A stretch of 64,000 bases of DNA from an uncultured Chloroflexia bacterium (GTDB lineage: Bacteria > Chloroflexota > Limnocylindria > Limnocylindrales > CSP1-4). Below the pieces are notes generated by a model, which ran no database searches, had not been told where the DNA came from, and was given only the letters and a program-made list of their open reading frames with translations. The stretch spans positions 325,850 through 389,849 of the forward strand of contig CAWEJO010000010.1 in NCBI GenBank assembly GCA_963809375.1, written 5' to 3'. Each line of letters opens with the position of its first letter. The first letter of the stretch is position 1. Positions 4,576 to 15,658 of this stretch are shown in pieces. Made by a program: the position numbers and the translations under genes.

Positions 4576-5419
4576 GTGGCGGGCTTTCTCGCCCGGCAGG
4601 AGCGGTTCGGCAGGATTGCCTCGACCCAGGACGTGGTGCGGGCCTGGCTCGCCGCCGGCGTCCCCGAGGTCTGCCTCGCGGCAGCCGCCGAGCAGACCGC
4701 CGGCCGGGGCCGCCGTGGCCGGACATGGATCGCGCCGCCGGGCACGTCCGTCATGCTGTCGGTCGGCTTCCGGCCGACCTGGCTGGCGCCCGACCTCGCC
4801 TGGCGACTCGCCGCGGCCGTCAGCCTGGCCATGGCCGACGCGGCCGAGGACGCAGCCGGCCTGCGCGTCGGCGCGATCCGCCTCAAATGGCCGAACGACC
4901 TCGTGATCGAGACCGACGCTCAGGGAGCGCCGCTCGCGGGCGTGGGCGGCGGTCACGTCCGCAAGCTCGGCGGCGTCCTCGGCGAATCCGACGGCCTCGG
5001 GAAGCGCCGATCCACGGGTCGTGGTCGGGATCGGGATCAACGCGGACTGGGCCGCGGCCGACTTCCCAACCGATCTCGCGGCAGGCATGACGAGCCTCCG
5101 CGAGGCGGCCCGCGGCCGCCCGATCGACGGCGACGAGGTCCTCGACGGCTTCATCGACCGCCTTGAGGGGCGACTCGCCGCGCTGCGCGGGGGATACTTC
5201 GACATCGAGACCTGGGCCGCCCGCCAGGTCACGACCGGGCGCCGAGTGGTGGTCGAGGGCCACGCCGACGAGCCGGAGGAGCTCCTCGCCGTCGGCGTGG
5301 ACGCCGGCTCCGGGGCGCTCCTGGTTGCCGATCCGGCCGCGCCAGACGGGGAGCGGCCGATCCACGCGGGGGAGATCACGCGGATCCGGGTCGTCGACGC
5401 GACCCGGCCGCCCGTGTAA
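4576..5419 (+). CDS. birA: Biotin--[acetyl-CoA-carboxylase] ligase (short form without HTH); frame broken near 5002 in this assembly
   Basis: GTG 4576. GRGRRGRTW and KWPNDL..KLGGVLGE are in frame 1; VVVGIGINADW continues to the stop at 5419 in frame 2. Confidence 0.8.
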
Positions 5420-5435
5420 CGAATTCGAGGTCGCG

Positions 5436-6084
5436 GTGTTCAGGAGAGGTGAGGGAGCAGAGGCGGCCGGCACGGTTCGGCGGGTGGTCCCGCTCGATCC
5501 GGACCGGTCGCTGGTGCGGGCCGCGCAGGCGGATCCGGCCAGCTTCGACGCCCTCTACCGGAAGTACGTCGGACAGGTCTACAGCTTTGCCTATCACGAG
5601 CTCGCCGATCACCACGAGGCGGAGGACGTGACCGAACGGTCGTTCCTGCTCGCCCTCGACGCCCTCCCGCGCTTCCACGAGGAGGCGCCCGTCGAGGCCG
5701 GGCCGGAGGCGTCCACGTTCCGCGTGTGGCTCTTCCGGATCGCCCGCAACGCGATCTCGAACCAGCGCCGGGCCCAGCGCCGGCGGCCCACGGCTCCCCT
5801 CGAACGCCGTCGCGGCCATCGCCGCGGCCGACGACGTGGAGGCTCGGGCGATCGCCCGGGCCGATGCCCTCGAAGCGTGGGCCGCGGTCCGGCGGCTGCC
5901 CGACGACCGGCGCCGCGCCCTCGAGCTGCGGTTCGTCGAGGAGATGAGCACCGCGGAGATCGCCGGCGTGCTCGGCAAGTCCGAGGGCTCGGTTCGCGTC
6001 CTGCTCCACCGGGCCCTGCGGGCGGTTGCGAACGACCTCGGCGCTCGCGGCCACGGCCCGTCCGGCGAAGGCCGGCGGCCGTGA
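5436..6084 (+). CDS. ECF-type sigma-70 family sigma factor; frame broken near 5805
   Basis: Region 2 (FDALYRKY..WLFRIARNAISN) is in frame 3 and region 4 (RLPDDRRRALELRFVEEMSTAEIAGVLGKSEGSVRV) in frame 1. Start GTG 5436 or 5484 is uncertain. Confidence 0.8.
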
Positions 6085-6710
6085 ACGGCCACCTCGATCC
6101 CCTGGGGCGCATCGGGCGCCTCGACGCCGAAGCGCTCGCGACGGACCACTACCTCGAATCGCTGCTGGCCTCCGCGGTTCGGCGCGAGCCCGACGCCGAG
6201 CCCCCGGCGGAGGTCGATCCGGCCCTGGAGGCGGTTGCCATCGCCCTGCGCGACGGCGCCGTCCGGGTCCACCCGAGCTTCCGGTTCGAGGAGCGGCTGG
6301 CTCGCCGCCTCGCCGAGGCCGCTGCGGACCTTCGTCTCGTGCCGGCGGCGAGCGGCGAGACCGGGGCCCCGGTCATCGCCTTCCGGAGGGCCGGCGGCGC
6401 CGCGGCCGGTGTCGCCGCGGCCGGTGTCGCCGCGCCCGGTGTCGCCGCGGCCGACGTCGCCGCGGCCGGCGTCGCCGCGGCCGGCATCGCCGCGGAAGAC
6501 GTCGCCGAGGGAGCCGCGCGCGCGGCGCAGGGCTCTCCGCGCCCGATCGCCCGACCGCTCATCGTGGGTGGCGCGCTCACCTCGGCCGCGATCTCGATCG
6601 CGGGCGCCGCGTTCGTCGCGTGGCGGCTCGCCCGCTCGGGGGCAGCCGGCGCCGGCGCGCCCGGATCGGCCGCCGGATCGCTGCCCGGCCTGCTCCGGAG
6701 GCTCGACTGA
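6081..6710 (+). CDS. Putative anti-sigma factor / single-pass membrane protein
   Basis: GTG 6081 overlaps the sigma-factor stop (GTGA). C-terminal TM segment PLIVGGALTSAAISIAGAAFVAW. No recognisable anti-sigma motif; the call rests on position only. Confidence 0.45.
   Translation: MNGHLDPLGRIGRLDAEALATDHYLESLLASAVRREPDAEPPAEVDPALEAVAIALRDGAVRVHPSFRFEERLARRLAEAAADLRLVPAASGETGAPVIAFRRAGGAAAGVAAAGVAAPGVAAADVAAAGVAAAGIAAEDVAEGAARAAQGSPRPIARPLIVGGALTSAAISIAGAAFVAWRLARSGAAGAGAPGSAAGSLPGLLRRLD
6396..6500 (+). repeat. Coding 15-bp tandem repeat (7 units) giving (AAGVA)n
   Basis: GTCGCCGCGGCCGGT-like units repeat with an exact 15-bp period inside CDS 6081-6710. Confidence 0.85.
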
Positions 6711-7576
6711 TGCCCCTCAACCTGCCGTTCCGGCCGCGCCGGGAGACCTACCCGCCGGACATGTGGACGCAGTGCCCGGGCTGCAGCGAGATGCTCTTCA
6801 ACCGCCACCTCGAGAAGAACCTGCGGGTCTGCCCGTCGTGCGGCCACCACTTCCGGATCTCCGCCCGGGTGCGCCTCGACCAGCTGATGGATCCGGGCAC
6901 GTTCCGTGAGCGCGACGAGGGCCTGACCGCCGAGGACCGCCTCGGCTTCGTCGACTCGAAGCCGTACCCCGACCGGCTGGCCGCCGCGCAGCTCGCCACG
7001 GGACGCCGGGACGCGGCCGCCTGGGGCTTCGGCAGCCTCGGCGGCGTCCGCGTGGCCGTCTGCGCGCTCGACTTCGGGTTCATCGGCGGCTCGATGGGAG
7101 CCGTGGTCGGCGAGAAGGTGACCCGCGCCGCCGAAGGCGCCCTCGCCGAGCGGGTGCCGCTCCTGATCGTCTCGGCATCGGGCGGCGCGCGGATGCAGGA
7201 GGGCACGCTGGCGCTGATGCAGCTGGTCAAGACCGTGAGCGCCATCGAGCGGCTGCGGGCCGCCGGCATCCCCTTCGTCTCGCTCCTTGCCGATCCGACC
7301 ACCGGCGGCGTCTTCGCCTCGTTCTCCGTCCTCGGAGACGTCAACATCGCCGAACCGAACGCGCTGATCGGGTTCTCCGGCGCGCGGGTCTCGGCCGGGA
7401 CGATCGCCGAGGAGCTGCCGCCGGGCTTCCAGCGCGCGGAGTTCCTGTTCAGCCACGGCTTCGTCGATCGGATCGTGGCGCGCGCGGAGCTCCGCACCGA
7501 GCTGACCGCGCTGTTCACGCTGCTGGCTCCGCCCCCCGCCGGCGGCGACGCGCCGGGGAGCCCGAACCGTGGTTGA
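6710..7576 (+). CDS. accD: Acetyl-CoA carboxylase carboxyltransferase beta subunit
   Basis: N-terminal zinc ribbon CPGC..CPSCGHH, and FGFIGGSMG. ATG 6710 overlaps the upstream stop. Confidence 0.93.
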   Translation: MPLNLPFRPRRETYPPDMWTQCPGCSEMLFNRHLEKNLRVCPSCGHHFRISARVRLDQLMDPGTFRERDEGLTAEDRLGFVDSKPYPDRLAAAQLATGRRDAAAWGFGSLGGVRVAVCALDFGFIGGSMGAVVGEKVTRAAEGALAERVPLLIVSASGGARMQEGTLALMQLVKTVSAIERLRAAGIPFVSLLADPTTGGVFASFSVLGDVNIAEPNALIGFSGARVSAGTIAEELPPGFQRAEFLFSHGFVDRIVARAELRTELTALFTLLAPPPAGGDAPGSPNRG

Positions 7577-8723
7577 CCGGCTCCTCCGGCGTGACCACGC
7601 CCCGGCCAGCGCGCCGCCGTCGGACACGCCCGCTCCGCCCGGCGCGCCCGCTCCCGCTCCCGCGCCGGCCCCGGCGCCCGCCCCCGTCCCCGTCGGCCCC
7701 GGCGAGGTCGACGGCCGCATGCCGGCATCCGTCGCGGCGCCCGCCGACGGCGGGCCGGAGCGGGCGGCTGCCCGGGACGCCGTCTGGGCGCGGGTCCAGC
7801 TCGCCCGCAACCCGAAGCGCCCGCACACGCTCGAGCTCGTCGGCCACATCGCTGACACGTTCGTCGAGCTCCACGGCGACCGGCTCTTCGGGGACGACGG
7901 CTCGATCGTGGCCGGCCTCGGGCAGATCGGTGCCCAGCGGCTCGTGATCGTCGGCAACCAGAAGGGCGCCGACACCGACGAGAACATCCGGCGCAACTTC
8001 GGGATGTCGAAGCCGGAGGGCCTGCGCAAGGCGATCCGGTGCTTCCGCCTGGCGGAGCGGTTCGGGCTCCCGGTGGTCACCTTCGTCGACACGCCGGGGG
8101 CGTACCCGGGCGCCGAGGCCGAGGAGCGGGGCATCGCCGAGGCGATCGCGCAGTCGATCCTGGTCATGAGCAGCCTGCGCGTCCCGATCGTGACCGTGAT
8201 CACCGGCGAGGGCGGCTCCGGCGGGGCGCTCGCGATCGCGGCCGGCAACGTCGTGCTCGCCCTCGAGAACGCGGTCTACAGCGTCATCAGCCCCGAAGGC
8301 TGCGCGTCGATCCTGTGGCGCACGCCGGAGAAGGCCGCCGACGCCGCCCTCGCGATGAAGATGACGGCGGCCGACCAGGCCGAGCTCGGCGTCGTCGACC
8401 GGGTGATCGGCGAGCCCGGCGAGGGTGCCCATACCGATGTCCAGGAGACCGCGAAGCGGATCCGGGCGGCGCTCGTCACGGAGCTCGACCGGTTCGCCGG
8501 CGTGCTGCCCGAGGAGCTGGTCGCCCAGCGCTGGCGCCGCTACCGCGACTACGGCGCGTTCCTCGACGAGGGCCCGGGCGACGCCGTCCCGGCCGGCGAG
8601 CGTCCCGGCGGGATCGCCGATCGGCTCCGCAAGGCGTTCGACCAGGTCGGTGGCGCCCTCGGCGGCCGGACCCGGGATCCCCGCGAGGGCCGCGACGGCC
8701 CGCCCGCCCGCGAGGAGGTCTAG
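7569..8723 (+). CDS. accA: Acetyl-CoA carboxylase carboxyltransferase alpha subunit (with an Ala/Pro-rich N-terminal extension)
   Basis: Motifs RPHTLE, FVDTPGAYPG, ERGIAEAIA, GEGGSGGALA. Start is uncertain. Confidence 0.9.
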   Translation: MVDRLLRRDHAPASAPPSDTPAPPGAPAPAPAPAPAPAPVPVGPGEVDGRMPASVAAPADGGPERAAARDAVWARVQLARNPKRPHTLELVGHIADTFVELHGDRLFGDDGSIVAGLGQIGAQRLVIVGNQKGADTDENIRRNFGMSKPEGLRKAIRCFRLAERFGLPVVTFVDTPGAYPGAEAEERGIAEAIAQSILVMSSLRVPIVTVITGEGGSGGALAIAAGNVVLALENAVYSVISPEGCASILWRTPEKAADAALAMKMTAADQAELGVVDRVIGEPGEGAHTDVQETAKRIRAALVTELDRFAGVLPEELVAQRWRRYRDYGAFLDEGPGDAVPAGERPGGIADRLRKAFDQVGGALGGRTRDPREGRDGPPAREEV

Positions 8724-8726
8724 GCG

Positions 8727-9710
8727 TGGCTCACCCGCGAGGACGCCAGCCTGCCCGGGCGCGGACCCGCGGATCGCCTCGCCGATCACGCCACGATCGA
8801 TCGCCTGGCGACCGACCTGCTGCCGGCGCTCGTCGCCCAGCTCGGGGCAAGCGGTCTCGGTGAGCTCGAGGTCCGCGAGGGCCCGTGGCGCCTGCGGCTG
8901 CGCATGCCGGCCGAGGCCGCCGAGCGCGCCCGGGCGATCGCGGGGTCAGTGTCCGACGACCCCGGGCACGTCCAGCTGGCCCTGCCTGACCCCGCGGCGG
9001 CCCAGGCCGGCGCGGCGGCCTCCGACCCGACGGTCGCGAGCGCCGCCGGCGAAACGCCCCCCGGCGCCGGCGCGCCGGGCGAAGCGCCAGCCGCTGGGTC
9101 GAACGGGGCCGCCGCCGTCGCGACGGCCGGCGAGATCGGCGGGGCGGCGCCGCGGGTCGTGGCGACGTCCCCCGCGGTCGGCTTCTTCCGGCCGCGGCCC
9201 GCCCTGGTGGAGGGCGCGACGCTCAAGGCCGGCGCCGTGCTCGGATCGGTCGACGTCCTGGGCGTGGCCCAGGAGGTCACGGCGCCGGCCGCCGGGATCG
9301 TCGTGCGCTTCCTCGTCGAGCCGGGCGAGCCGGTCGAGTACGGCCAGGAGATCCTCGAGATCGGCCAGCCGCCGGCCGCGATCGCGCCGCCGGTTCGCCG
9401 CGCGCCCGACAAGCCGGCCCTGCCCGACGAGCCGCCCCTGCCAGGAGCCCGCCGCTCGGCCGACGACCTGGCCCTGCCGGGCGAACCGTCCCTGCCGGGC
9501 GAACCGTCCCTGCCGGGCGAACCCGGGGCGCAGGAAGCGCGGCCCTCGCCGCGTGGCGCCCCCGCCCCGGCCTCGCCGCCGAACCCCGGAGCCGACGGAG
9601 CGCCCGCGCCCGACCCCGGCGCCGGAGTGGCGCCGATGCCCGACCCGGCCGCGGCCACGCCGCCGGACCCCGGCGCCGGAGTGGCGCCCGCGCCCGAGGG
9701 CGGCGCCTGA
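8727..9710 (+). CDS. BCCP-like biotinyl-domain protein lacking the biotinylation lysine; no canonical start for its conserved N-terminus
   Basis: The frame is open from 8724. It carries the BCCP N-domain-like LGELEVREGPWRLRLR and a barrel segment SPAVGFF..VDVLGVAQEVTAPAAGIVV..GEPVEYGQEILEI, where LGVA replaces EAMK. The first in-frame ATG is only at 8904. Confidence 0.7.
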   Translation, partial: WLTREDASLPGRGPADRLADHATIDRLATDLLPALVAQLGASGLGELEVREGPWRLRLRMPAEAAERARAIAGSVSDDPGHVQLALPDPAAAQAGAAASDPTVASAAGETPPGAGAPGEAPAAGSNGAAAVATAGEIGGAAPRVVATSPAVGFFRPRPALVEGATLKAGAVLGSVDVLGVAQEVTAPAAGIVVRFLVEPGEPVEYGQEILEIGQPPAAIAPPVRRAPDKPALPDEPPLPGARRSADDLALPGEPSLPGEPSLPGEPGAQEARPSPRGAPAPASPPNPGADGAPAPDPGAGVAPMPDPAAATPPDPGAGVAPAPEGGA

Positions 9711-11074
9711 TGTTCGAGCGCGTCCTGATCGCGAACCGGGGCGAGGTGGCCCTGCGGATCCTGCGCGCCTGCCGGACGCTCGGCATCGGCGCGGTCGTCG
9801 CCTACAGCGAGGCCGACCGGGATTCGCTCGCCGCCCAGCTCGCCGACGAGGCGATCTGCATCGGCCCGGCCGACAGCCGGCGCAGCTACCTCTCTGCGTC
9901 GGCGATCATCTCGGCCGCGATCGTCACCGGCGCCGACGCGATCCACCCCGGCTACGGCTTCCTGTCCGAGGATGCCGGCTTCGCCGAGGCCGTGGCCGCC
10001 CACGGGCTCACGTTCATCGGGCCGTCGGCCGAGGTCCTCGAGCGGTTCGCCTCCAAGGAGCGGACGCGCCAGCTGCTCGGCAGCCACGGCCTGCCGACCG
10101 TCCCCGGTTCTGACGGGGTGCTGCGCGACGACGGCCACGCCCTCGCCGAGGCGGCCCGCATCGGGTATCCGGTCCTCATCAAGCCGGCGGCCGGCGGCGG
10201 CGGCAAGGGCATGCGGATGGTGCGCAACGCCCGCGAGCTGCAGACCGCCGTGCGGCTCTGCCGGGCGGAGGCGAAGGCCGCGTTCGGCGACGATTCCCTG
10301 TACCTCGAGAAGTGGCTCGAGGACAACCGCCACGTGGAGGTCCAGGTCGCCGTCGACCGGTATGGCCGCGGGATCCACCTCGGCGAGCGCGACTGCTCGG
10401 TCCAGCGCCGCCACCAGAAGCTGCTCGAGGAGGCGCCGACGCCGGCCCTCCCGCCCGAATCCCGGGCCGAGCTGGCCGACCGGGCCATCCGCGCCGTGGT
10501 GGCGGCCGGCTACGAGAACCTCGGGACCCTCGAGTTCCTGGTCGACCGCGACGGCCGGTTCTACTTCATCGAGATCAACTGCCGCATCCAGGTCGAGCAC
10601 CCCGTCACCGAGATGCTCACGGGGATCGATCTCGTCGAGACGCAGCTGCGGATCGCCGCCGGCGAGCCGCTCGGGATCGACCAGTCCGACGTCGCCACCC
10701 GGGGCCATGCGATCGAGTTCCGGATCAACGCCGAGGATCCCGCCCACGACTTCCGGCCGCAGGCCGGCCACGTCGAGCGCTACCACGCGCCGTCCGGACC
10801 ATGGGTGCGCATGGACTCCCACCTCTACGCCGGCTACGACATCCCGCCGTACTACGACTCGCTGCTCGGCAAGCTGATCGTCTGGGGCCCCGACCGCCGC
10901 GCCGCGATCGCTCGCGGCAAGGTCGCCCTCGACGAGCTGGTGGTCGACGGGGTCGTGACCAATCGCGCCTTCCACCGGGCCCTGCTCGACAACGCCGCGT
11001 TCGTGGACGGCCGGGTGACCACCAACATGATCGACCGCGTCGGGGCCGCCGCGGTCCTCGCCACGCACCGCTGA
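9710..11074 (+). CDS. accC: Acetyl-CoA carboxylase biotin carboxylase subunit
   Basis: 454-aa intact ORF. Motifs VLIANRGEVALRI, GGGGKGMR, EINCRIQVEHPVTE. Confidence 0.95.
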   Translation: MFERVLIANRGEVALRILRACRTLGIGAVVAYSEADRDSLAAQLADEAICIGPADSRRSYLSASAIISAAIVTGADAIHPGYGFLSEDAGFAEAVAAHGLTFIGPSAEVLERFASKERTRQLLGSHGLPTVPGSDGVLRDDGHALAEAARIGYPVLIKPAAGGGGKGMRMVRNARELQTAVRLCRAEAKAAFGDDSLYLEKWLEDNRHVEVQVAVDRYGRGIHLGERDCSVQRRHQKLLEEAPTPALPPESRAELADRAIRAVVAAGYENLGTLEFLVDRDGRFYFIEINCRIQVEHPVTEMLTGIDLVETQLRIAAGEPLGIDQSDVATRGHAIEFRINAEDPAHDFRPQAGHVERYHAPSGPWVRMDSHLYAGYDIPPYYDSLLGKLIVWGPDRRAAIARGKVALDELVVDGVVTNRAFHRALLDNAAFVDGRVTTNMIDRVGAAAVLATHR

Positions 11075-11192: not shown

Positions 11193-11648
11193 GTGACCGA
11201 ACCGATCCACACCACGCGCGAGATCGAGGCCCTGATCCCGCACCGGTGGCCGTTCCTCCTCGTCGACCGCATCGACGAGTACGATCCGGAGGCGCACCGC
11301 ATCGTCGGGGTCAAGGCCTTCACCGCGACGGAGTGGTTCTTCCACGGCCACTTCCCCGGGATGCCCGTGGTGCCCGGCGTGCTCCAGATCGAGGCGCTGG
11401 CCCAGACGATGGCCGTCTACGTCGCAAAGCAGGAGGGCTTCGGAGACCGGATCGGGCTGTTCGCCGGGATCGACGGCGTCCGCTTCAAGCGGGTCGTCAA
11501 GCCGGGCGACGTGATGCGCCTCGAGGTCACGATGGAGAAGCTCGGCAAGCGGTTCGGGCGTGGCCTGGCGGTCGCCACCGTCGACGGCGAGGTCTGCTGC
11601 GAAGCGACCCTCTCCTTCATCATCCCCGACGCGTCCGTGCTTCGATGA
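11193..11648 (+). CDS. fabZ: 3-hydroxyacyl-ACP dehydratase
   Basis: Motifs LIPHRWPFLLVDR and FFHGHFPGMPVVPGVLQIEALAQ. Confidence 0.93.
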   Translation: MTEPIHTTREIEALIPHRWPFLLVDRIDEYDPEAHRIVGVKAFTATEWFFHGHFPGMPVVPGVLQIEALAQTMAVYVAKQEGFGDRIGLFAGIDGVRFKRVVKPGDVMRLEVTMEKLGKRFGRGLAVATVDGEVCCEATLSFIIPDASVLR

Positions 11649-12391
11649 CCCGGATCGCGGTCTTCTCCGACGTCCATGGCGTCGTCCAGGCGCTCGAGGC
11701 GGTTCGTGCCGCCGTCGCGTCGGCTGCGCCCGACGTCGTCGCGGTCGCCGGCGACTACGCCGTGAACGGCGCCGACCCGGCCGCCACGATCGACGGGCTG
11801 CGCGAGCTCGAGGCCGCGGGCGCGGTGCTCGTCCAGGGCAACACCGACATCGCGGTCGCCGACGGCGACTACGGCGCCGCCTATCCCTGGTTCGCCGACG
11901 GCGTCCCCGAGCCGTACCGCCAGGCCGCCGAATGGGCGCGCGATGCGATCGGCCCGGAGCGGGTCGACTGGCTCCGGCGTCTCCCCGCCGAGCGGCGGAT
12001 CCGCACCGACGACGGGACGCTCGTGCTCGTGACCCACGCCTCGCCCGGTTCCCAGACGGCGGGCTTCGACCAGAGCCTCGACGACAGCGTGATCCTCGAG
12101 CGCCTCGGCCGCACCGACGCACGGGTGATCTGCTGCGGGCACACCCACGTCCCCGAGGTCCGCGACTTCGGGTGGAAGGTCATCGTCAACGACGGGAGCG
12201 CCGGCAACGTCTTCGACGGCGACCCGACCGTCTCGTGGGCGCTCATCGACATCGTCGACGGCCTGGTCACGGCGGAGATCAAGCGGACGCCCTTCGATGC
12301 CCTCGCGGCCGCCGACGCGGTCGCCGCCCGCGGGCTCGCCGGCGACGTCTACCGGGCCGCGACCATTCGCACGGGCAAGCTCGTCCGATGA
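11645..12391 (+). CDS. Calcineurin-like metallophosphoesterase (YfcE/MJ0936-like)
   Basis: Motifs FSDVHG, AGDY, GNTD, CGHTHV. ATGA overlaps link it to fabZ upstream and fabF downstream. Confidence 0.8.
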   Translation: MTRIAVFSDVHGVVQALEAVRAAVASAAPDVVAVAGDYAVNGADPAATIDGLRELEAAGAVLVQGNTDIAVADGDYGAAYPWFADGVPEPYRQAAEWARDAIGPERVDWLRRLPAERRIRTDDGTLVLVTHASPGSQTAGFDQSLDDSVILERLGRTDARVICCGHTHVPEVRDFGWKVIVNDGSAGNVFDGDPTVSWALIDIVDGLVTAEIKRTPFDALAAADAVAARGLAGDVYRAATIRTGKLVR

Positions 12392-13657
12392 ACACCGACA
12401 CGCCGTCGGGCGCGCCGCGGGTCGTCGTGACCGGGATGGGCATGGTCACCAGCCTCGGCCCGGACGTGGCGACCACGTGGGACGGGCTGGTCAACGGCCG
12501 GTCCGGGATCCGGGCGATCAGCGCCTTCGACGCCTCGCAGCTCGACTCGCGGATCGCCGGCTCCATCCCGGACTTCGATCCGTCCGGCGTGCTCGACCGC
12601 AAGGAGCAGCGCCGCAACGACCGGTACACGCAGCTCGCGCTCGTGGCGGTGCGCCAGGCGCTCGACGAGGCCGGCCTGCCAGGCCGCCTCGAGGGCGAGC
12701 TCGCCGAGCGCACCGGGATCATCCTCGGCACCGGGCTCGGCGGCGGGCTCACGTTCGACGAGCAGGCTGCGCGTGGGGCTCGAGAAGGGCTTCGACCGGG
12801 TGAGCCCGTTCTTCGTGCCGATGACGATCCCGAACCTCGCCGCCGGCCAGGCCGCGATCATGTTCGGGCCGGTGGGTCCCAACTTCGCGATCGCGTCGGC
12901 CTGCGCCACCGGGGGCCACGCGATCGGCGAGGCCTGGGAGACGATCCGGCGGGGCGACGCCGACGTGATGATCGCGGGCTCGACGGAGGCCGCGGTCGGC
13001 GAGACGATGATGGCCGGGTTCGCCGCGATGCGGGCGCTCTCCACCCGGAACGACGACCCGCCGGCCGCCTCGCGGCCGTTCGACCGCGGGCGCGACGGGT
13101 TCGTCATCGGCGAGGGATCGGGCGCGCTGATCATCGAGCGGCTCGACCATGCCCTCGCCCGAGGCGCCGAGCCCCTCGCCGAGATCATCGGCTACGGCGC
13201 CTCGGCGGACGCGAGCCACATCACGCTCCCCGCGCCGGGCGGGGTCGGGGCCATTCGGGCGGTGCGCCGGGCGCTGGCCAAGGCCGGCCTCTCGGTCGAC
13301 GCGGTGGACCATGTCAACGCCCATGCGACGTCCACCCCCGAAGGCGATCGGACCGAGCTCGAGATGCTCCGCGGTCTGTTCGGCGATCGGGTCGGCGAGG
13401 TCAGCGTGACGGCGAACAAGAGCATGATCGGCCACACCCTCGGCGCCGCCGGCTCGATCGAGGCGGTCGTGACGGTGCTGTCGCTGCGCACGGGCCTGAT
13501 CCCGCCGACGGTCAACCTCGTCGAGCCGGACCCGCTGGCCGAGGGCCTGGACCTGACCCCGAATGCCGCCCACGAGCGAGCGATCCACATCGCGGTCAGC
13601 AACTCGTTCGGGTTCGGGGGCCAGAACAGCGCCCTCGTGATGGCGCGGTGGGGCTGA
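12388..13657 (+). CDS. fabF: 3-oxoacyl-ACP synthase II; frame broken near 12772
   Basis: The N-terminus VVVTGMGMVTSLG is in frame 1. SPFFVPMTIPN, ACATGGHAIG, NAHATSTP and GHTLGAAG are in frame 2. Confidence 0.9.
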
Positions 13658-14440
13658 TGAGCCAGGCCGACCCGGCAGCGGACACGGCCGCCCGGCCGGC
13701 TGCCCCGCCGGCCGCCCCCGACGATGGGACCGCGACGGCCGACGCTTCCGTGGGCGCCGACACGTCCGGCGACGCTTCCGCCGCGTCCGCCGCGGGGCAG
13801 CGGCCGAGCACTCCGCGCGGCGGCAGCGGCCGAGCACTCCGCCGCGTCCGCCGCGTCCGCGGCAGCGGCCGAGCACTCCGCCGCGGCGGCAGCGGCCGAC
13901 GCTTCCCTCCTCGCGCTCGTCGGGCGGCTGGCCGCCGCGCTCGCGGACAGCGACCTCACCGAGCTCGAGGTCGAGGCCGGCGAGACCGCGCTCCTGCTCC
14001 GCAAGCCCGGCCCCGCTCCGATCGTCATCGGCGTCACGGCGCCGGCGGCACCAGGTGTCACGGCCGCGCCCAACGCCACGGCCGCAGCCCCGGCCCCCGA
14101 CGGCGGACCGGCGGCTCCCGCCGCGGCCGGCGCATCGGCCAGGGCCGCGTCGGGCGCCCATTCGACCGCGGCGCCGGAGCGCCTGGCAGGGCACGCCGGC
14201 CGCCTCGTCGTCGCGGCGCCCCTCACCGGCGTCTGGTACGCGTCGGCGAGCCCCGGGTCGCCGCCCTTCGTGGCCGTCGGGAGCGAGATCGCCGTCGGCC
14301 ACGTGATCGGCCTGATCGAGGCGATGAAGCTGTTCAACGAGATCAAGTCGGATCGCGCCGGCCGCGTCGTGCGGGTCGTGCCTGAGAACGGGGCCCTCGT
14401 GCGGGCCAAGCAGCCGCTGATCGAGGTGGAGCCACTGTGA
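13657..14440 (+). CDS. accB: Biotin carboxyl carrier protein (canonical); frame broken within 13794-13826
   Basis: ATG 13657 is in frame 1 and the C-terminal two thirds are in frame 2. Canonical IGLIEAMKLFNEI motif. Confidence 0.85.
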
Positions 14441-15658
14441 GCCTGCCGCTGGTGCCCGTGTCCCGTGCCCGTCGCTACGCCCGGATCAGCGGCTGGGGCT
14501 CGTACGCCCCCGAGGCCGTCCTGACGAACGCCGACCTCGAACGGATGGTCGACACCTCGGACGAGTGGATCGTCTCCCGCACCGGGATCCGGGAGCGCCG
14601 CGTCGCCGCGGCCCACGAGACGACCGCCAGCATGGCCGCGGTCGCCGGGCGGCGGGCCGTGGCCGTCGCGGGGCTCGACCCCGACGAGATCGACATCATC
14701 CTCGTCGCGACGCTGACGCCCGACTACTGGATGCCGTCCACGGCCGCGCTCGTCAAGGAGGCGATCGGCAACACGCGGGCGGCCGCGATGGACGTGGCGG
14801 CCGCCTGCTCCGGGTTCGTCTACGGCTACGCCACGGCCCAGGCGTACGTCGAATCCGGGATGGCCCAGCACGTGCTGGTGATCGGGGCCGAGCTGCTCAC
14901 CCGCTTCCTCGACTACTCGGACCGCGCGACCTGCATCCTCTTCGGCGACGGCGCGGGGGCGGTGGTCGTCTCGGGCGGCGACGAGCCCGCCGGCCCCAAC
15001 GGCATCGAGCTGACGACCGAGCCGCAGGGCGCCTACATGATCTGGCTACCGTCCGGTGGCTCGAAAAGTCCCGTCCTCGGCGGAGACCGTGGCCCGGGGC
15101 GAGCACCACATCCGGATGGAGGGCAAGGAGACCTACCGGTTCGCGACCAGGACGCTCGCGTCGACCGCCCTCGCGGCGGTCAGCCGGGCCGGCCTCCGAC
15201 CCGACGAGATCGACCTGTTCATCCCGCACCAGGCCAACATCCGGATCATCGAGGCCGTGGCGAAGGGCCTGGACCTGCCGATGGACAAGATGTTCGTCAA
15301 CCTCGACCGCTATGGGAACACGTCCGCCGCGTCGGTGCCCCTCGCGCTCGCCGAGGCGGTCGACTCGGGCCGCATCCGGATCGGTGACCGCGTGGTCATC
15401 GTGGCGTTCGGCGCCGGGTTCACCTCGGGAGCGGTCGCCTTCGAATGGACCGCCGACCCGGCGAACGCATCGCGCGCCGCGTCGATCCGGCCCGAGGACA
15501 TCTCGGTCCGCCTGCCGGTCGCCTGGGATTCGGTCGATCCCATCCCCGCCCGGCTCGCCGCGGTCCTCGCCAGCCCCGGGCCGGTGGACGTGCCCCTCGA
15601 CGACGTCGTCCCGGGCGAGCCGGAGCGGGTCCTGGGCCACCATCGCATGGATGTGTAG
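14437..15658 (+). CDS. fabH: 3-oxoacyl-ACP synthase III; frame broken in the A4 run 15064-15067; ~70-aa C-terminal extension
   Basis: Motifs SDEWIVSRTGI and AACSGFVYG are in frame 1. HQANIRII, GNTSAASVP and FGAGFTSG are in frame 2. Confidence 0.9.

Follow-up and report, generated by a model that had tools for sequence, protein, structure and literature searches.

Can a biotin carboxyl carrier protein (BCCP) that has lost the lysine to which biotin is attached still serve acetyl-CoA carboxylase (ACC), and if so, in what capacity? This question is raised by a gene between accA and accC of an uncultured Chloroflexia bacterium from soil (GTDB lineage Bacteria; Chloroflexota; Limnocylindria; Limnocylindrales; CSP1-4). 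The gene lies in a stretch of 64,000 nucleotides, hereafter the window, from contig CAWEJO010000010.1 of GenBank assembly GCA_963809375.1 (positions 325,850 to 389,849 of the forward strand). A first-pass annotation, made from the letters of the window alone, had described its product as a BCCP paralog in which the EAMK biotinylation motif is replaced by a sequence with no lysine, and had likened it to the BADC proteins of plants. We refer to the gene and its product as the lysine-less BCCP twin, or simply the twin. Our analysis shows that the twin belongs to the BCCP/AccB family, that it is a genuine gene under selection, and that biotin attachment at its canonical site is impossible. It is no local oddity, being the Limnocylindria member of an old lysine-less clade that spans most of Chloroflexota.

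A BCCP fold with glycine in place of the biotinyl lysine

The conserved frame of the twin (8724-9710, forward strand) is open for 328 codons. The replacement of the EAMK motif held in five separate comparisons, each of which placed Gly180 at the position of the biotinyl lysine. BLASTP of the twin against the product of the window's own accB (13724-14440) set SVDVLGV opposite LIEAMKL. In MAFFT alignments with 30 and with 120 homologues, Gly180 stood opposite the biotinyl lysine and was invariant. In a profile-profile comparison by hhalign of the twin family and the accB copies of the same genomes (probability 94.8, E 5e-8), both the N-terminal domain and the barrel were aligned, again with Gly180 opposite Lys. 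A search of PDB sequences with the twin-family profile (hmmsearch) recovered E. coli AccB in 4hr7_B (E 1.6e-12) with Gly opposite K122; M121 of the E. coli protein is Leu in the twin. Both hhalign and the PDB profile search also revealed a gap of 5-6 residues in the twin opposite the thumb region (TPSPDAKAF / SPaPGS). Finally, an AlphaFold model built from a 121-sequence alignment positioned L179-G180 at the tip of the beta-hairpin formed by residues 172-186. No lysine came into register with the biotinyl lysine in these alignments or in the fold model. An invariant glycine has taken the place of the lysine at the hairpin tip, and the twin is therefore unable to bind biotin at the canonical site.

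The two domains proposed by the first-pass annotation were recovered as well. The N-terminal domain was aligned with that of accB by hhalign and is modeled as a helix followed by a beta-hairpin, and the biotinyl-type barrel is modeled with a predicted local distance difference test score (pLDDT) of 97. The best Foldseek matches of the twin are biotinyl domains of BCCPs, from P. horikoshii (5gua, 2ejf_C) and E. coli (1bdo, 4hr7), with target-normalised template modelling (TM) scores of 0.79-0.90 and root-mean-square deviations (rmsd) of 1.4-1.8 Å. Alignment to curated models, which the annotation had suggested as a check, showed that the twin reaches neither of the cut-offs for BCCPs. It scores 37.6 bits with TIGR00531 (NCBIfam BCCP), far below the cut-off of 115.2, and 21.4 bits with Pfam PF00364 (Biotin_lipoyl, residues 161-213), slightly below the cut-off of 22.1. 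The window's canonical accB scores 95.8 bits with TIGR00531 and 43.7 bits with Pfam. The proline-rich tail with LPGEPS repeats that had been noted at the C-terminus is also present, the repeats arising from a perfect 18-bp unit in 2.9 copies (9472-9523) that encodes LPGEPS three times. This tail is unusually long in the window; among the 30 homologues aligned with MAFFT, most have a short one or none. The working carrier of the organism is not the twin but the product of another gene, an accB with the EAMK motif between fabF and fabH.

Conservation of the twin in Limnocylindria

We also carried out the survey of such paralogs beside accA and accC that had been proposed with the original observation. 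A pattern scan of one genome per species identified 362 genomes that encode a relative of the twin. The order accD-accA-twin-accC-fabZ-metallophosphoesterase-fabF-accB-fabH was found in all 80 Limnocylindria loci that were fetched. The twin carries the motif D[VML]LG in 77 of these 80 loci, and the fabF-linked accB carries EAMKL in 65 of 66. Within a 400-genome sample of the phylum, the twin profile was matched in every Limnocylindria genome (46/46), four of which are streamlined genomes of 1.1-1.4 Mb. In nine genomes inspected from other families of the class, the twin is shorter (137-170 aa) and always lies between accA and accC. Twins from these families keep glycine at the lysine position, in motifs such as HVDVLGV, VEMLGV, IQTLG and others.

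A similar picture emerged from a library of 1.84 billion cluster representatives, in which 161 entries reached E 1e-30 or better with the family profile. Among the best 149 representatives of 50%-identity clusters with a sequence on file, 110 have glycine as judged by a motif pattern, and inspection of 12 representatives that do not match the pattern found glycine in all and lysine in none.

Both domains appear to be under constraint. Mean pairwise identity of the twin over 28 genomes is 81% in the N-terminal domain and 70% in the barrel; the corresponding values for the essential accB of the same 28 genomes are 81% and 82%. The median ratio of nonsynonymous to synonymous substitution rates (dN/dS) of the twin over the two domains is 0.24 (2206 pairs).

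One lysine-less clade across the phylum

The best matches of the twin in other families of Chloroflexota are mostly lysine-less too. Lysine-less orthologues, mostly linked to efp, are present in at least 13 further GTDB families of the phylum, and the column of K122 holds Gly, Asn, Ala, Arg, Gln, Met or Ser depending on the lineage. Outside Limnocylindria the gene follows an M24 peptidase gene and efp in all but one of the loci with a visible flanking gene; the gene downstream is xseA in the single efp-linked locus checked by Pfam. The efp-linked relatives in other classes retain the thumb-region insertion. A lysine-bearing efp-linked copy has been kept in a few lineages (loci L113 and L116), and in four other families the best match has lysine.

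In Ktedonobacteria, which include the cultured Thermogemmatispora and Dictyobacter, Asn replaces Lys in 116 of 120 homologues. Asn-bearing proteins of these two genera (P0391, P0414, P0451 and P0464) bear the public name 'acetyl-CoA carboxylase biotin carboxyl carrier protein'. In Thermogemmatispora and Dictyobacter, the role of true carrier probably falls to the fabF-linked copy, as in one Ktedonobacteria genome that was checked (G111, locus L124). A second, lysine-bearing BCCP lies directly after fabF in 11 of 11 other Chloroflexota genomes checked, which is the position of the canonical accB in the window.

In a maximum-likelihood tree, all 25 lysine-less rows, efp-linked and Limnocylindria alike, form one clade (support 96/92), which is still recovered when the hairpin columns are left out (83/89). 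The fabF-linked copies with lysine, including the Limnocylindria accB, form another clade (99/98), and the efp-linked copies with lysine adjoin the E. coli root (99/89). The twin groups with the efp-linked lysine-less proteins, not with the fabF-linked accB, and a single change of state on the tree suffices to account for the loss of lysine. A recent local duplication of the neighboring accB, which we had considered as an origin of the twin, was rejected on the basis of this tree and of the efp-linked orthologues.

The arrangement efp-accB(-accC) is common for true accB genes in bacteria, and outside Limnocylindria the lysine-less gene shares this efp neighborhood with true accB. At the efp locus of the window's genome there is no BCCP-like gene, xseA following directly after efp; relocation into the acc operon is therefore suggested. 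In the most economical history, an efp-linked BCCP appears to have lost its lysine once, to have been kept, and to have moved between accA and accC in Limnocylindria.

An unusual frame was seen among the related loci. In L139 / L152 (G086 contig 25, 24350-25075), a 391-aa open frame contains two consecutive BCCP-like matches with EAMKM and may encode a tandem or duplicated carrier domain.

The start codon of the twin and the quality of the assembly

As the first-pass annotation had pointed out, the conserved frame of the twin contains no ATG, GTG or TTG before ATG 8904. The annotation suspected an indel near 8726-8730 that hides the start. An indel is probable, and our comparison with relatives moves it to about 8734-8738 and identifies GTG 8726 as the start that relatives use. 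In relatives, the start is nearly always a GTG one codon past the accA stop, and the N-termini read M-x-H/D-H-D, for example M-A-H-H-D or M-T-H-D-D. From GTG 8726, the window reads M-A-H-P and then leaves the frame. Deletion of one base at the CCC run 8734-8736 yields MAHREDASLPGRGPADRLADH... / MAHREDASLPGRGPADRLADHATIDRL..., in agreement with the N-termini of the relatives. The GAGGAGGTC block is invariant in a DNA alignment of the window with five relatives. The lack of a start codon is thus most likely a one-base assembly error.

By tblastn, at least four further frameshifts relative to homologous genes occur in the first 16 kb of the window. They split birA (4576-5398), a sigma-factor gene (5403-6039), fabF (12418-13657) and fabH (14437-15658) between two frames, the break in fabH falling at an AAAA run near 15063-15066. 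Together with a genome completeness of 60%, these frameshifts point to an indel-prone assembly rather than to gene decay.

An obvious rival explanation is that the frameshift is real and that the twin is a dead gene in this genome, given that the GTG start is out of frame with the conserved open reading frame (ORF) as assembled. We give this explanation hardly any credence. The downstream frame of 328 codons is fully open with all conserved motifs intact, the four genes named above are broken in the same way within 16 kb of a 60% complete genome, as expected of assembly indels, and similar read-throughs occur in several relatives from the same type of long-contig metagenome assemblies. A pseudogene was rejected on the strength of the intact frame, the family-wide conservation and the dN/dS value.

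Operon context in the window

The features of the locus are collected in Table 1. The stop codon of the twin overlaps the start codon of accC (TGA 9708-9710, ATG 9710-9712), which confirms the TGATG junction reported in the first-pass annotation. At the other end of the gene, the C-terminal end of AccA, ...PPAREEV* (8700-8723), recurs in the relatives examined, and the codons of this segment contain the GAGGAGG Shine-Dalgarno sequence of the twin. The AccA tail may thus be partly constrained by the translation signal of the gene downstream. Judged by these junctions, the twin is placed to be translationally coupled with accA on one side and with accC on the other.

Table 1. Coordinates of the twin, its parts and its neighbors in the window (positions count from the first letter of the window)
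Feature	Position	Strand	Evidence and remarks
birA (biotin protein ligase)	4576..5398	+	Pfam BPL_LplA_LipB; frameshifted near 5000-5037, two tblastn pieces in different frames
accD (carboxyltransferase beta)	6710..7576	+	Zinc-ribbon PF17848 and Carboxyl_trans PF01039, tblastn with relatives; true start uncertain
accA (carboxyltransferase alpha)	7569..8723	+	Pfam ACCA, E 5.6e-112
Shine-Dalgarno GAGGAGG	8712..8718	+	7 nt upstream of GTG 8726
Lysine-less BCCP twin	8726..9710	+	GTG 8726 in frame 2; conserved frame 0 open from 8724; stop TGA 9708-9710
Probable one-base insertion	8734..8738	+	CCC run 8734-8736; DNA alignment with relatives
BCCP-type N-terminal domain of the twin	8766..8903	+	Helix, residues 15-43, and beta-hairpin, residues 47-60 (LGELEVREGPWRLRLR); pLDDT 80-88 for both
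Disordered linker of the twin	8904..9140	+	Residues 62-140, pLDDT 40-57; Arg/Gly/His-rich in this family, of variable length (alignment)
Biotinyl-type beta-barrel without thumb insertion	9141..9368	+	Residues 140-215, pLDDT 97; Foldseek matches
Gly180 codon GGC	9261..9263	+	Hairpin tip, in SVDVLGV; position of the biotinyl lysine in BCCPs
C-terminal tail of the twin, Pro/Ala-rich, disordered	9369..9707	+	Residues 216-328, pLDDT 50-62; unusually long in the window
accC (biotin carboxylase)	9710..11074	+	Pfam CPSase_L_D2, Biotin_carb_N, Biotin_carb_C
Canonical accB, between fabF and fabH	13724..14440	+	IEAMKLFNEI, K202 = 14327-14329; start uncertain

The canonical accB retains IEAMKLFNEI, as the annotation had stated. 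The start that it gave for this gene, ATG 13657, overlaps the stop of fabF (TGATG) yet is not in frame with 13724-14440. The Ala-rich N-terminal extension of this gene may contain another indel.

Several neighbors merit a remark of their own. A calcineurin-like metallophosphoesterase (11645-12391) is encoded between fabZ and fabF. Wherever the DNA of the 80 related loci extends that far, tblastn finds it at the same place, and it is a fixed member of the fab/acc cluster. accD and accA of the window overlap by 8 nt in different frames, and in the relative L027 (5094-7022) they form a single ORF of 642 aa, a fused carboxyltransferase. A fusion of accA with the twin, suggested by an ORF scan in seven loci, was ruled out by translation, which shows a stop after ...AREEV.

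Discussion

What could a carrier protein without its cofactor site contribute to a heteromeric carboxylase? The reading that we favor, with rather more confidence than doubt, is that the twin is a biotin-independent, non-catalytic subunit of ACC, which either binds to biotin carboxylase or uses its hairpin to form mixed oligomers with AccB. In this proposal, docking on AccC, the biotin carboxylase, would be the task of the strongly conserved N-terminal helix and beta-hairpin, and the hairpin would co-assemble with that of AccB into a small hairpin barrel like the one that tetramerises biotin carboxylase in Chloroflexus aurantiacus BC1. The 'blind' barrel of the twin could occupy carrier-binding sites. 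Overall, the twin would either organise the holoenzyme or determine the number of its biotin arms, as has been proposed for the BADC proteins of plants.

A structural or stoichiometric subunit is favored because the N-terminal helix and hairpin are the best conserved part of the twin, and because the BC1 hairpin barrel and the BADC proteins provide precedents. In C. aurantiacus BC1, four N-terminal BCCP hairpins come together in an eight-stranded barrel, through which biotin carboxylase becomes a tetramer and gains activity even when the BCCP core is missing (PMC11077971). The plant BADC proteins are BCCP-like and non-biotinylated; two roles have been ascribed to them, that of inhibitors displacing BCCP and that of a 'glue' that assembles biotin carboxylase with BCCP and the holoenzyme (PMC11926652). 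In a more far-reaching version, which we regard as unlikely and advance only tentatively, the ACC of Chloroflexota would be a five-component enzyme. The twin would be an obligatory architectural subunit whose hairpin builds, with the AccB hairpins, the barrel that tetramerises biotin carboxylase, thereby fixing the biotin arms per holoenzyme; it would be a bacterial, independently evolved counterpart of BADC that is older than the split of the Chloroflexota classes.

Several points weigh against a subunit of ACC. The mechanism is one that we infer from the architecture of the protein, from synteny and from precedent. The neighbor of the gene in most Chloroflexota is efp (with xseA where checked), and the 10-kb loci around it showed no acc gene. 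The thumb, a normal feature of BCCPs that serve ACC, is deleted in the Limnocylindria proteins, and the lineage-variable residue at the lysine position (G/N/A/R/Q/M/S) fits a loss of function, not a new shared chemistry. The hairpin-barrel precedent is a fused biotin carboxylase-BCCP protein, not a free BCCP (PMC11077971). In addition, the twin gene of this genome is frameshifted as assembled.

Comparison with known systems helps to place the twin. Like the BADC proteins of plants and green algae (Arabidopsis BADC1-3 of the plastid heteromeric ACCase), it is BCCP-like, has no AMKL biotinylation motif, occurs beside a true BCCP and is tied to a heteromeric ACC. Unlike BADC, it is bacterial and operon-encoded and keeps the N-terminal hairpin domain of BCCP. 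It also nests among Chloroflexota BCCPs in a tree that holds no plant sequence, which suggests an independent origin. The twin is BADC-like, with an origin that is probably independent of BADC. As a description, the plant analogy drawn by the first-pass annotation is apt; that the twin has a regulatory or structural role in ACC is a further step that we infer.

The twin shares the three-part architecture and the barrel fold of E. coli AccB (1BDO, 4HR7; TIGR00531; target-normalised TM about 0.8, rmsd 1.8 Å), whereas it has Gly for K122 and Leu for M121, a thumb that is deleted in Limnocylindria, and a score far below the TIGR00531 cut-off. With the BCCP of C. aurantiacus BC1 it has in common a hairpin that precedes the linker and barrel, the hairpin region being the best-conserved part of the twin. 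BC1, however, is a fused biotin carboxylase-BCCP protein with a functional Lys553, and a hairpin barrel formed by a free lysine-less protein is a proposal only. The epsilon subunits of actinobacterial acyl-CoA carboxylases are not known to be related to BCCP in sequence or fold. What they share with the twin is that they are small, non-catalytic proteins proposed to assemble or activate a biotin-dependent carboxylase ('glue', cited in PMC11926652).

Among the alternatives to an assembly role, the most serious, though improbable, is a pure competitive decoy as in the inhibitor model of BADC. A BCCP architecture that is complete apart from the lysine, in a protein predicted to be co-transcribed with accA and accC, could compete with holo-AccB for AccC or carboxyltransferase and would lower ACC flux as a stoichiometric brake rather than act as an assembly factor, as plant papers have put forward. 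A constitutive brake set for translational coupling inside the operon of its own target would, however, be an odd design, and the gene is kept even in streamlined genomes of 1.1 Mb; for the plant proteins, the structural data of a nuclear magnetic resonance paper were argued to favor assembly over inhibition (PMC11926652). The neighborhood outside Limnocylindria, with the order M24 peptidase-efp-twin, xseA next in the one locus checked and acc genes undetected in the 10-kb loci, raises another prospect. The protein might have inherited from it a biotin-independent job outside ACC, for instance with EF-P, the M24 peptidase or exonuclease VII, its position in the acc operon being a secondary accident. 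We consider this quite improbable, as the linkage is most simply explained by ancestry: efp-accB(-accC) is a common arrangement, and lysine-bearing copies still follow efp in some Chloroflexota (L113, L116). Moreover, the only lineage with an apparent move placed the gene exactly between accA and accC and has kept it there in 80 of 80 loci.

Very unlikely, in our judgement, is a dedicated regulator of acc/fab expression that acts through the BCCP N-terminal domain. James and Cronan reportedly found in 2004 that E. coli AccB autoregulates accBC through this domain, and a twin N-domain that is the most conserved part of the protein (81% identity), followed in this family by an Arg-rich linker, would suit such a role. 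Yet the Arg-rich linker is missing from the shorter proteins that other families of the class encode, the barrel is strongly constrained as well, and neither AlphaFold nor Foldseek predicted a nucleic-acid-binding fold. The least credible alternative is that the twin is still a cofactor carrier, using another residue or another prosthetic group. Its barrel fold is intact (pLDDT 97), and in one subfamily (P0122-P0241, 137-150 aa) 26 of 120 members have a lysine at the third position ahead of the glycine (IKSLG). The remaining members have Gln or Asn there, no conserved barrel lysine was found across the family alignments, and the residue at the hairpin tip differs between lineages (Gly, Asn, Ala, Arg, Gln, Met or Ser). 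K168, the sole barrel lysine of the window twin, is Arg in at least 90% of homologues in the 120-homologue alignment. An alternative modified lysine was rejected on these grounds, K168 being Arg in relatives and the IKSLG lysine being Gln in most members of the subfamily.

In an incomplete search of the literature, we found no description of a bacterial lysine-less BCCP, and only the papers on plant BADC and on C. aurantiacus BC1 turned up. The non-biotinylated BCCP paralogs in the literature that we found are subunits of plant ACCase only, and whether they act as brake or glue is still disputed. Here, the same defect marks a conserved bacterial family that occurs in many families of one phylum. 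Its members include proteins of cultured Ktedonobacteria, and in one class the gene belongs to the acc operon. Given the public carrier-protein name of Asn-bearing proteins, metabolic reconstructions may choose the wrong gene as accB. With the twin family, the role of a 'blind' carrier protein in a heteromeric carboxylase could be studied in a system that is simple, operon-encoded and genetically separable.

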